Below are positions 23,159 through 35,230 of a DNA stretch of 64,000 bases, one piece after another. The notes below the pieces were generated by a model. It made no database searches, was not told the DNA's origin, and was given only the letters and a program-made list of their open reading frames with translations. The position numbers and the translations under genes were made by a program. How positions within the stretch are numbered: position 1 is the stretch's first letter; each line of letters begins with the position of its first letter. Source of the stretch: Octopus vulgaris (taxonomy: Eukaryota); the NCBI GenBank assembly GCA_951406725.2, contig OX597831.1, positions 52,638,001 through 52,702,000 of the forward strand, in the 5' to 3' direction.

Positions 23159-23195
23159 GGAAGACACTAGAAAGTCATACATCTAGTGGTCTTCT
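23159..23195 (+). other. GUCAUAC-loop stem-loop, copy 1
   Basis: GGAAGAC-ACUAGA [AAGUCAUACA] UCUAGU-g-GUCUUCU: 13 bp with one bulge. Confidence 0.75.
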
Positions 23196-25330
23196 AAAAA
23201 AAAAAAAAATTTAATGAAATTTTAAAGAAAACATAGAAAAATCGACAAGAAGTCGTGCAGTGAATAAAGGCTGACATTTTTTTTTTGTCCTGGGGGTCGG
23301 GGGTTTCTATGTTAGCTTTTTGGCAAGCAAGATTCTACTCACAACCATTATTTTGTCATTTTTGTGCCCTAAACTCAAAACTCAAATTTCCAACTAAATC
23401 TTAAGCAAAAAACAAGATGCCAACATTTGTTTCTGTCTTGTAGGAGTTGAATAGAAAGAAAAAAAGAAAGAATTAACTTTCATTCAACTCATTCTCTCTC
23501 TTTCTTTCTCCCTCGCTGTTTCTCTCTCTCTCTCTCTCTCTCTCTCTCTCTCTCTCTCTCATATATATGTATATATATGTATGTATATATATATAATTTG
23601 TATATATATATATATATATATATATATATATATATATACACATAAATATACATATGTATGTATATATATATTCATATATATAAATATGTACATACATGTG
23701 TGTGTGTGTGTGTGCATGTGTGTACGTGTATATATATATATATATATATATATATATATATACACATTCTCTATCTGCATACCTCATTCTCTCTCTCTCT
23801 CATTACCTTTCACACTCTCTCCCTCTCTTTCTAACTCTCTCCCTCTCTCTTTCTCTCTCTTTCTTTCTCTTACTCAAATTGACAAATTTTTTTTTTCATT
23901 TTAATTACCACAGCAGGAACAAACCAAATGAAAACAAGTGTGCGTGGTTACAAAAAGAGAGATAGAGATAATGAGAGAGAAAGAGAAAAAGAAAGAGATA
24001 GATAGAGATAGAAAGAGAGAAAAACAAAGAAAGAGCGATCTTACGGCTCCATTTTCTTTTTATTTTCTTCCAAAAGGTTTTTTTCTTTTTATGTCTTTTT
24101 TGTTGCAATGTTTGTTGTTGTTATGGTGGCAACAGCAATGGTAGATGTTTCATTTTTTTGTTTTTTATTTTTTAGGGACTTTTTTTTTTCAAAATTTTAA
24201 TTTCTTTCATTTGACATTTACAAAAACCATTTCTTTCACTATTACTGCTGCTGCTGCTGCCACCACAATCAGTAACAAGAGAATTTTGAAATGTTTTCAA
24301 AAGATTTTTTTTTTTCAAAATTCCAAATCATTAAATCTTGAATATTAAGATTATCATAATTATTATTAATTTATCACCATTATCATATTTAGCATAATTA
24401 CTACACCTATTCTTATTATTGATATTTGATATTATTATTATTACAATTATTATTATTATTATTATTATTATTATTATTATTATTATTATTATTATTATTA
24501 TTATTATTATTTACTGTTTCTGCTATTTCTATTATTATAATTATCATCATCATTATCATCATCATCATCATCATCAACATCATAATCACCATCATCATCA
24601 TCACTATCATCACTATCTCCTTTATCTGTTATTATTAATGCCTTGCATATATTTGTTCCGTCTTTCTATCTTTACATTCTGAGTTCAAATCCTGCCATGG
24701 TCAACTTAGCCTTTCACCTCTCTGGGGTTGATAAAATAAAGCACCAGTCAAGTTACTGGGGTCAGAGATACTGACTAACCCTTCCCCTCAAAACTGATAG
24801 CCTTATGGCTAGATTTAGAATGACACTACCATTATTGTTATCGACATTATTATTATTATTATTATTATTATTATTATTATTATTATTATTATTATTATTA
24901 TTACTATTATTATTATATCCCAACTACTTCTACCAACCATTTTATACCAGAGCAACAATTTTTAGTCATATATATATGTATATATACATATGTATATGTA
25001 TGCACACATACACACACACACGCACATACATAGATACATATATATATATATATATATATATATATATATATATATATATATATATATATATATATATATA
25101 TATATATATATATATATAAAATTCATTTTGGAATTGGATCTTGAAATTACATATAAAGCTATGAATAATAGCATGCAAATATCGAGTTGACTTCAGCAAT
25201 ATATATATATATATATATATATATATATGCTAATGTTAAATAATATATAGAATATGTTGTCACTGTGCTGATAACTGTTTTACGTAGAGGCCTAACACAC
25301 ATGCGAGATTTTTTAATGGATAATTTTTTA

Positions 25331-25389
25331 TATTTCATTATTTACATGTCAGTCTGTCATACAACTGACATATAAAAATTAGTGGAGTG
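25331..25389 (+). other. GUCAUAC-loop stem-loop, copy 2
   Basis: AUGUCAGU [CUGUCAUACA] ACUGACAU, extended by UUUA/UAAA and UAUUUCAUUA/UAGUGGAGUG (G-U rich). Confidence 0.75.
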
Positions 25390-33009: not shown

Positions 33010-33430
33010 ACATCTGTACAGCTTCTGATGTCTGTACAACATCATGTAACCAAGTAGCAACCAACGTCTGTACAGCATATGTACAATATCAGACATTTGT
33101 ACAGTATCTAAAATTTTTATAGCATCAAACATTTGTATACCATCTGGCAGCTGTACACCATCAGAACACTGTCTAACATCTGCCTGTATCCTACTTGGTA
33201 TCTGTCACTTGGTATTTTTACACCATTTGGCTTGTATAAACAATCTAGCCTATGTACACCTCTGCCATCTGTATACCACCAGGTATCTATATACCATTTG
33301 GCATCTGTATGCCACCTGGTACCTACATATATACTGTCTCTACACCATTCCATTGTACACTATTTGGAATCTGGACAACATCTGGCATCTATCTGTAGAG
33401 CATCTGTATATTATCTAGAATGTGTATACA
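33010..33430 (+). repeat. Degenerate ~18-bp tandem repeat (consensus about CATCTGTACACCATCTGG)
   Basis: Roughly 20 diverged units are visible. Confidence 0.75.
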
Positions 33431-35198
33431 TGTAAGGAAAAAAAACCGCTTACAACACAAGGTCAAATGTCGCAATCTTATGTAGAACAACCTTGACCTC
33501 TGTGAAATTGTAAACCTTTGCAGGGCATTGATAGAATGGGAAGTATTTGTAAAGCATCTTCCCTGTAAACCACATCTTCCTACTTCCGATGAAATGAATA
33601 CCCACCATCAGCAATCATCATAACCATTACCAACATGTTTGTGGCTATCATTACTGTTGTTTTTGAGGAAGATGATGAGGATGATGATGATGATAATGAT
33701 GTTGTCGTGAGTGTTGTGTTGTCAATGTTGTATCTTTATTTTAGGGAGAAGGTTAAGTAAGTGAAGCACAAAATAAAAATGTCTTGCAGGTACTAGTTTA
33801 CATCATTTTACATTCAAAGTTCAAATTTCATCAAGGTTTATGAATTAGAAATAGTTATCAGTCAAATACTGGAGTCAGTCTCTAATTGACTATACACTCA
33901 CTTCCCACCCAAATTTGTGGCCTTGAACCTTTATTAGATATCACCGTAATCAATAAGGATGCAGGGAGAAAGAGAGAGAAAAACAGAGTGAGAAAGAAAT
34001 ACAGAGGGAAACATAGAGAGAGAGAGGAAGACAGATAGAAATAGAGTTACATAGACATGAAGGATATGATAAAAGATAGGTACAAACAAGAAGGACCAGA
34101 AGTATCATATGAATGTGGAGAAGAGAGGAGAGTTGGGTAAGGGTGGATTGACTTGCTTGCAGTCTGGGTTAAGAGGAGATGGAAACAAAGGAAAGAAACC
34201 AGCTACAAAGGGATGGCAGCCATCAATTCACTACATCTCTTTGCTACTTTGATATCACCTTTTCCCAAACAACATAGGGTCCTGAGCTATATCATTTGCA
34301 TCATACCCAACTTTAGTTAAGTGTAGACTAATATATTTCATGTAATTAGTTTTTAAGAAAATACCCAACCATTCAAAGTTAAACTTATAATGAAAGAACA
34401 GTCATTAACATTAAAGACAGTGTTTTCTGATGAAATCAGAGAAGAGAATTTCAAAGGTAAATTCATTAGTGGTTTTATTAGGTTTCATTTTGGGAAAGTA
34501 TGGTAACAACTCCAGACATATTTCAGTCCTGTTAGACCTTTTCAGTGAAGTATTGTCTTATTTGCACAGACCAGATCATAAAAAGATTATAGTAATTTTT
34601 GTGGAAAATAAATCACAAATTGGACTGTTATTCTACACTATCTTGTTTCATACATATATCCTTGCCATTGGTGGTTCTGTGAGGTCTACAGCAAAATAAA
34701 TACACAGACATACATGAGGGAGATTTGGTGGTGGGCTTCTTTTTTTTTTTTGTTATGATGGTTTAAAACTTTGCTGAACTTCCAAGACAGTTGAAGGGAA
34801 AACAGAGACAGAAACTTTGACTCATGGGTTGTTACTAACCACTGTTTCAATCAATGACTATAGCTTATTCAGGAGTCAGTGACTGCAGTTGAGCCAACCA
34901 ACAAACAGGGGAATTCTTTTGATGCAATGCTCTCAGGATTTACAGTTGATAATGGGAGGTAAGTGTGATAAAGTCAGACATGGAAAAATTTTGCAGTTGA
35001 TAGTATGAGGTACATACAATAAAGCTGAATAGATCTAAAAAGACTTAGTAATTGGCAATGATAGGTTACATACCTTTATCATTTAATCTTAAGTCAGCCC
35101 GATTAAATAGACCTGTGATTAAAACCATTCCAGCTTAGGCCTGGTGCCTGTCATATTTGGCAGCAACATGTACCCTCTAAGGAACACTGCAAAAGAAA

Positions 35199-35230
35199 AT
35201 GTGGTCAGCCTTGTCATACAGCTGACCAAT
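35199..35230 (+). other. GUCAUAC-loop stem-loop, copy 6
   Basis: UGGUCAGC [CUUGUCAUACA] GCUGACCA. It shows compensatory changes relative to copy 2 (U-A to C-G and U-A to G-C). Confidence 0.75.

Follow-up and report, generated by a model that had tools for sequence, protein, structure and literature searches.

To our knowledge, few invertebrate long non-coding RNAs (lncRNAs) outside flies and worms have known functional elements. We analyzed a 64-kb window of the Octopus vulgaris genome (C18:52638001-52702000), which carries an array of six predicted hairpins, h1 to h6, each presenting the heptamer GUCAUAC (GTCATAC as DNA) in its loop; all positions are those of this window, and a 464-kb set comprised the window plus 200 kb on each side. 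The array is flanked by an unc-93A-like gene on the plus strand, which ends 31 kb before the window (its stop lies 54 kb from the array), and by a CCDC177-like gene on the minus strand; the proteins of the neighbouring genes match Octopus entries. Because these two genes converge on the array, it is intergenic, and neither a coding exon nor a Pfam family was found between 8 and 60 kb of the window. The hairpins share one orientation and stand 1.7-3 kb apart at this one locus:

23159..23195, plus strand: h1, stem of 13 base pairs (bp) with one bulge, loop AA-GUCAUAC-A, z -5.3, flank single-copy
25346..25371, plus strand: h2, core stem of 8 bp (longer if bulges are allowed), loop CU-GUCAUAC-A, z -3.6, flank single-copy
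28048..28073, plus strand: h3, seven pairs and a U-U mismatch, 23/24 bases the same as in h2, z -1.5
31042..31075, plus strand: h4, interrupted stem (6+2+3 pairs), loop C-GUCAUAC, p 0.003, z -1.2, hairpin part single-copy
32744..32781, plus strand: h5, 15-bp stem with one G-U pair, loop A-GUCAUAC, z -6.9, flank single-copy
35202..35228, plus strand: h6, 8-bp stem, loop CUU-GUCAUAC-A, z -3.5, single-copy context

Eight copies of GTCATAC occur on the plus strand within 23159-35230 (at 23174, 25356, 28058, 30068, 31056, 31894, 32760, and 35213), and the rest of the window holds one further copy on the plus strand (3647) and one on the minus strand. A first-pass annotation of this DNA had counted eight plus-strand copies by eye against roughly one expected, six of them with stems; both counts were confirmed. 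Dinucleotide shuffles of the stretch, a check it had suggested, gave fewer copies than the observed eight (mean 1.1, maximum 6 in 300 shuffles), and 0.41 copies were predicted from the flanking DNA (Poisson 1.5e-8, uncorrected for the post hoc choice of motif). The six hairpin copies are each predicted to be enclosed by a pair with a probability of 0.97-1.00, the copies at 30068 and 31894 with 0.06 and 0.00, and 3 of the 33 other copies in the 464 kb reach 0.9. When flanks were shuffled around the fixed motif, p was 0.0005 for h1, 0.004 for h2, 0.027 for h3, 0.003 for h4, 0.0005 for h5, and 0.001 for h6; the two copies that lack a hairpin gave 0.81 and 0.76. Comparable stems surrounded 0/50 one-mismatch variants of the heptamer on the plus strand and 1/31 on the minus strand. 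A scan of loop 7-mers in 16 windows of 28 kb, both strands included, returned mostly microsatellite words at the top; GTCATAC reached 5 (6 in 12-40 kb) versus 4 for the best other non-microsatellite words. The coupling of motif to structure is strict, and the array exceeds chance.

Placed in register, the unit consists of a 7-8 bp stem, 2-3 variable bases, GUCAUAC, and an A or U. In each of the 8 aligned stem pairs, both partners are altered in one copy or more, and 44/48 aligned stem cells pair (91.7% versus 60.1% in shuffled sequences), a signal lost on sliding the partners. This score leans favourable, but it reflects complementarity and not selection, since the structure was derived from the same six sequences. 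The stems of h1 and h5 differ from the others, as the first-pass annotation had stated, whereas its description of the stems as freely covarying did not hold, four copies carrying a common core. Because h2 and h3 are near-identical and h4 and h6 share an inner stem core, we count about three stem types rather than six. Folding is strong in h1, h2, h5, and h6 (z -3.5 to -6.9), and only h2 attains 25 pairs (with bulges). RNAalifold preferred self-pairing of the heptamer (G-C and U-A pairs closing a CAU triloop) above a one-base bulge; the alternative is an open loop of 8-10 nucleotides (nt).

The array appears to be a single-locus feature and not a mobile element. At the hairpin, the contexts of h1, h2, h4, h5, and h6 are single-copy in the genome (five flanks were searched, the h3 flank being left out), and an 18-mer common to h2 and h3 occurs twice in 2.8 Gb, both times in the array. 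Five genome patterns returned 2, 20, 23, 3, and 6 matches versus 0, 17, 13, 5, and 0 for their controls, the matches of the four looser patterns being scattered on both strands. Comparisons of flank against flank reached p<=0.04 in 2 of 30 cases, one of them likely owing to shared TA repeats. With five flanks single-copy, genome pattern matches scattered, and flanks mutually unrelated, we reject a family of transposons, miniature inverted-repeat transposable elements (MITEs), or short interspersed nuclear elements, and the earlier claim of unrelated flanks stands. A search for clustering across the genome, likewise proposed at that stage, pointed to this one locus, with no second array in the loci examined: there was no further model match within 1.5 kb of 38 genome pattern loci (two overlapping loci and three self matches excluded) and no array within 5-10 kb of 13 chosen pattern matches, arrays with other stems falling outside this scope. 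A model built from the six hairpins matched nothing above 15.7 bits elsewhere in the 464 kb. That 15.7-bit match (E 0.98; L030:9073-9098, window +113082) is a lone GUCAUAC hairpin in a CCDC177-like intron, folds on the plus strand only, and was treated as background. A metagenome scan with the h2/h3 18-mer yielded seven loci with one match apiece, and no long-range inverted repeats linking the array ends were found. None of the outcomes that the first-pass annotation had set against its own claim (thousands of scattered transposon-associated sites in both orientations, similar counts in shuffled controls, or an untranscribed region with unconserved hairpins) came about. Separately, the best outside match to the model (26.6 bits) lies at L111:26 (C27 near 7.215 Mb), with an imperfect GTCATAC stem ~690 bases off at L111:714. 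A tandem repeat containing GTCATAC (L066, C1:18673878-18674066) holds three pattern matches 86-87 bases apart and no model match at E<=1.

Evidence for transcription comes from contig sets, analyzed over 32200-35520; four runs with word shares <=0.04 (X21-X24) were not counted. Among the runs listed (24), 14, drawn from four studies, are contig sets of small size, 30-199 million letters; we guess them to be RNA, and they contain 93-98% of the words of this stretch. Run X6 (29 million letters), the only one of the 14 aligned in detail, is probably RNA, because a DNA set that small would amount to ~1% of the genome. It contains one contig across two hairpins:

32265..35520, no strand assigned: unspliced contig (run X6, record 25), 3317 nt, depth 19.4, two differences, no gaps, spanning h5 and h6

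No splice joint was found within 32200-35520. A related organism (E, ~94% alike) covers 34015-35520 at a depth of 127-131 in a 139-million-letter set, with a gapless bridge over h6 and no cover over h5, and another (D, ~99% alike) covers much of 32200-35520. A 62-residue protein of O. bimaculoides is identical at 57/62 positions to the plus-strand open reading frame (ORF) across h6, with the hairpin codons unchanged. As judged from these comparisons, the h6 region is retained in other Octopus species, which does not imply constraint. No protein-coding gene was found over the stretch, only a fragment of a long interspersed nuclear element (LINE) and the 62-codon ORF, as expected of a long intergenic non-coding RNA. 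A triple-helix pattern of the MALAT1 type gave no match, and no tRNA-like end was found. Two smaller observations concern the same stretch. Run X21 (organism F) contributes a sole piece just 3' of h6 (35240-35438, 199 nt, one difference), which could reflect either a 3' end or local conservation. Between h5 and h6, a degenerate 9/18-nt repeat rich in CUGUA (33050-33430) is single-copy in the genome and lies inside the likely RNA; it could be a second repeated protein site.

The RNA is somewhat more probably the plus strand than the minus strand, to which only weak hints point. The z-scores are better on plus in 6/6 hairpins. Folding energies, which count against this assignment, favour minus for h3, h4, and h6 (3/6), and G-U pairs, which the first-pass annotation had taken to favour the plus strand, are near-equal on both. 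One contig reads G for A at 32751 (A>G), in a UAG context within the h5 stem, a change that keeps its pair on the plus strand only, and run X20 shows 18 A>G versus 6 T>C differences (p 0.03). Splice and poly(A) signals are ambiguous as to strand. Read from the minus strand, the loop is GUAUGAC-N. Two similar minus-strand acceptor-like sequences (U-tract, AG, AAGACC) occur at 23185-23215 and 38915-38950, the first directly before h1 on that strand.

Besides the hairpins and the contig, four features define the setting:

16136..43730, no strand: longest interval free of young interspersed repeats in the 464 kb, a rough outer bound of the proposed RNA
29308..29673, minus strand: old RVT_1 (LINE-like) fragment between h3 and h4, E 0.058, below the cut-off, with its exact ORF in UniRef
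35168..35356, plus strand: 62-codon ORF across h6, an 'uncharacterized protein' in O. bimaculoides, cluster of one, no Pfam family
60524..63269, minus strand: last two coding exons of the CCDC177-like gene, with the stop at 60524, 25 kb beyond the array

The interval 16136-43730 contains 18,695 non-tandem bases versus 8,948 in the next longest and a median of 696 among 227 gaps in the 464 kb, by a measure that sees only repeats present twice in the 464 kb; under looser settings it spans 24.8-39.6 kb. Interspersed repeats make up 0-7% of each 4-kb bin between 20 and 36 kb (four bins) versus ~30% typically. The 62-codon ORF is likely no real protein. Exact look-up of ten ORFs as a proxy for transcription found one (the LINE fragment) and was uninformative, and two weak repetitive matches from a representative search with ORF 34430-34696 were disregarded.

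We hypothesize that one RNA-binding protein docks, in a sequence-specific manner, at each of the hairpins, and that these sit on a long, unspliced RNA that is intergenic and non-coding and serves as a scaffold or decoy; we assign this reading a probability of about 0.55. A heptamer fixed in six unrelated contexts, each time closed by a stem of differing sequence, is likely the trace of selection for a loop read by a protein. One RNA of ~15-25 kb would span all six hairpins, the invariant GUCAUAC loops would dock several copies of the protein, and the microsatellite-rich, kilobase-long spacers would serve as flexible linkers. Selection would maintain the heptamer, and the stems would be free to change because they would only present the motif. 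A scaffold or decoy is the simplest working model, given that a long intergenic RNA is the likely host. All seven bases would be read by the protein, in one of two shapes: an open loop of 8 nt (N-GUCAUAC), or a CAU triloop that tops two fixed pairs with a bulge below them. A single KH domain reads about four bases, and NOVA KH domains target YCAY. Because the seven fixed bases exceed such a footprint, a better fit than one NOVA KH domain is a reader with tandem domains or an enzyme that modifies RNA. UCAU, which matches YCAY, lies within the loop on the plus strand only, where part of it may be paired. Bicc1 targets contain YGAC or GACR words (PMC8249388). Were the RNA the minus strand, UGAC would stand in 6/6 loops; the bipartite Bicc1 element GACGUGAC is absent. 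Judged by their loop words, neither NOVA (UCAU, plus) nor Bicc1 (UGAC, minus) accounts for the seven fixed bases. A bolder version, which we hold doubtful, is an abundant architectural octopus lncRNA whose new RNA-protein code, six GUCAUAC hairpins joined by flexible linkers of kilobase length, would seed a nuclear body or titrate some key RNA-binding protein; molluscs would then have an equivalent of NEAT1, roX, or NORAD with a motif of its own.

Several points weigh against the docking-site reading. The long RNA proposed by the first-pass annotation is likely for the stretch of h5 and h6, which the 3.3-kb contig spans; h1-h4 lie outside the analyzed stretch, and the contig sets are RNA by guess, none being recorded as such and no silent control stretch having been compared. 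Run X20 gives no cover at 32200-33860, which includes h5, though such gaps prove nothing. The identity of the h6 codons is expected by chance at such divergence, and no base-level hairpin ortholog was seen from which covariation between species could be read. Taken alone, h3 and h4 fold weakly (z -1.5 and -1.2). On the minus strand the closing pairs equal or surpass those on plus, C-A and A-A turning into U-G and U-U, and because the DNA-sized run X18 shows a matching surplus of A>G (7 versus 1), that hint of strand may not be editing. Old repeat fragments do occur inside 16136-43730, and the interval measure is blind to repeats present fewer than two times in the 464 kb. Finally, the docking protein is putative.

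Hairpins repeated on one RNA have precedents, and none of those compared matches the array. The Xist A-repeat consists of tandem units with near-identical stems on a long RNA; the octopus hairpins are likewise repeated, but dispersed and with differing stems. NORAD and the bacterial RNAs CsrB and RsmZ are decoys carrying many copies of one protein site, with other motifs and in other kingdoms, whereas the octopus partner is putative. In the iron-responsive elements (IREs) of the transferrin receptor, several hairpins with variable stems present the fixed apical loop CAGUGN above a 5-bp upper stem and a bulge. The array resembles them in its several fixed-loop hairpins with a bulge and variable stems and differs in lacking CAGUGN, the 5-bp upper stem, and any Rfam IRE match. 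The loop resembles the anticodon loops of Met (CAU) and Asp (GUC) tRNAs; a tRNA or tRNA-like gene is rejected (ARAGORN 0). A cluster of microRNA precursors is rejected as well, given that conservation lies in the loop and not in an arm, only h2 reaches 25 pairs, and Rfam gave no match. Rfam returned no match at the gathering score in the window, and the listed E-value matches (150 of 387) were microsatellite-driven.

Closer in form is MAT2A's 3' untranslated region (UTR), where six stem-loops on one RNA present the fixed loop UACAGAGAA (PMC9778287). The octopus array shares the layout of six stem-loops presenting one fixed loop sequence on, in its case, likely one RNA, but its loop is GUCAUAC, the units are kilobases apart, and no host mRNA was found, in contrast to the vertebrate mRNA UTR. 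A METTL16 substrate of the MAT2A type is rejected, as UACAGAGAA is absent from the loops on either strand. In roX1 and roX2, a short motif recurs in stem-loops while the remaining sequence turns over, and function scales with repeat number (PMC4719309). The array is similar in carrying a short repeated motif in stem-loops of a likely long RNA. The roX RNAs are sex-linked, with 3-6 boxes in ~500 nt, each box pairing with an inverted box; the octopus motif sits in the loop, spread over 12 kb. The loose likeness to roX that the first-pass annotation had seen is unsupported, and we reject a roX-type RNA: GUCAUAC stands in a loop and differs from the roX box consensus GUUNUAC quoted there, and the locus is not on the contig bearing the Z-linked gene AMN. 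Zmast and Zfest, octopus Z-linked lncRNAs of 14-18 kb, the latter inside AMN (bioRxiv 10.1101/2024.12.09.627507), are long octopus non-coding RNAs, as the array's host likely is, with no hairpin array described for them in the accessible part of that preprint. Because AMN lies on C16 and the window on C18, the array is neither Zfest (by the location of AMN) nor Zmast (by linkage). Literature listings showed nothing relevant on the motif or on hairpins in octopus lncRNAs. We consider the array real, likely selected, and, as far as searched, undescribed. If the docking-site reading is true, a strictly read 7-nt loop would represent a new RNA-binding specificity. Units of 30 nt lend themselves to synthesis, to mutation of the loop or the stem, and to use as bait, so that what a long cephalopod RNA does can be tested directly, and motif plus synteny (the interval from the unc-93A-like to the CCDC177-like gene) offers a route to orthologs that alignment misses, as with roX.

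Among rival explanations, the one that survives best, unlikely as we judge it, is a cis-regulatory array that would control the stability of an mRNA from within its alternative last exon or an exceptionally long 3' UTR, the mRNA being for instance that of the CCDC177-like gene on the minus strand or of an unrecognised gene, in the manner of MAT2A or the transferrin-receptor IREs. Six fixed-loop hairpins are the layout of MAT2A, the stems fold about equally on minus, and a strong acceptor-like site lies on that strand at 38930, with another before h1. Yet the CCDC177-like stop is 25 kb off across a gap full of interspersed repeats, no coding exon was found in 8-60 kb, and 32200-35520 contains no splice joint.

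Less probable still are neutral relics, in which the local copying of a small palindrome in the distant past was followed by template switching in replication that rewrote and re-perfected the stems without selection. The near-identity of h2 and h3 and the relatedness of h4 and h6 suit such a history, as does template switching itself, which can create and maintain perfect stems (PMC8794818). It holds no loop fixed, however, and the heptamer is unchanged in 6/6 copies while the flanks have lost their likeness. The lack of degenerate stem-bearing copies, the single orientation, and the scarcity of young insertions would also go unexplained.

Similarly improbable, by a shade more, are loops serving as small-RNA targets (seed GUAUGAC) or as substrates of a modifying or cutting enzyme, with the RNA acting as a small-RNA decoy or controlling its own turnover. 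Strict invariance suits base pairing or an enzyme, and the 7-mer, followed by A in 5/6 copies, is shaped like an 8mer microRNA site; against this, microRNA sites seldom need a closing stem, and we know of no seed of this kind. Neither seed nor motif was found in the searchable supplements of an octopus microRNA paper (PMC9699675), whose main data archive was only partly covered, and for the enzyme version, the METTL16 nonamer is absent. Very improbable is an element acting at the DNA level, either a cruciform or a transcription-factor cluster, close to where a CpG-rich domain ends: CpG observed/expected does fall from ~0.9 to 0.2 at 5-8 kb of the window, and h2 and h3 contain TGTCA, a TALE-homeodomain-like word, but that edge is 15-30 kb off, the stems tolerate G-U and U-U positions, transcription of the region is likely, and a protein cannot read the arms as DNA because they differ among copies.

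The CpG boundary is itself a feature of the wider locus, with a ratio of ~0.9 across 200 kb upstream (which include the unc-93A-like gene, whose introns reach 43 kb) and 0.1-0.4 across the greater part of the 250 kb downstream. Of the 400 kb of flanks, 300 kb were searched against Rfam, with one marginal tRNA-like match. Further downstream (L036-L045, window +170 to +260 kb) lies a CRAL-TRIO gene on the plus strand, where cysteine-rich repeat genes on the minus strand and an aminotransferase-like exon were also recognized by eye. Within the window, an imperfect palindrome of 278 nt that surrounds a short run of TA (11183-11460) folds far better on the minus strand, and a near-perfect, MITE-like 31-bp hairpin (~-53 kcal/mol) with a 17-21 nt loop occupies 46640-46725.

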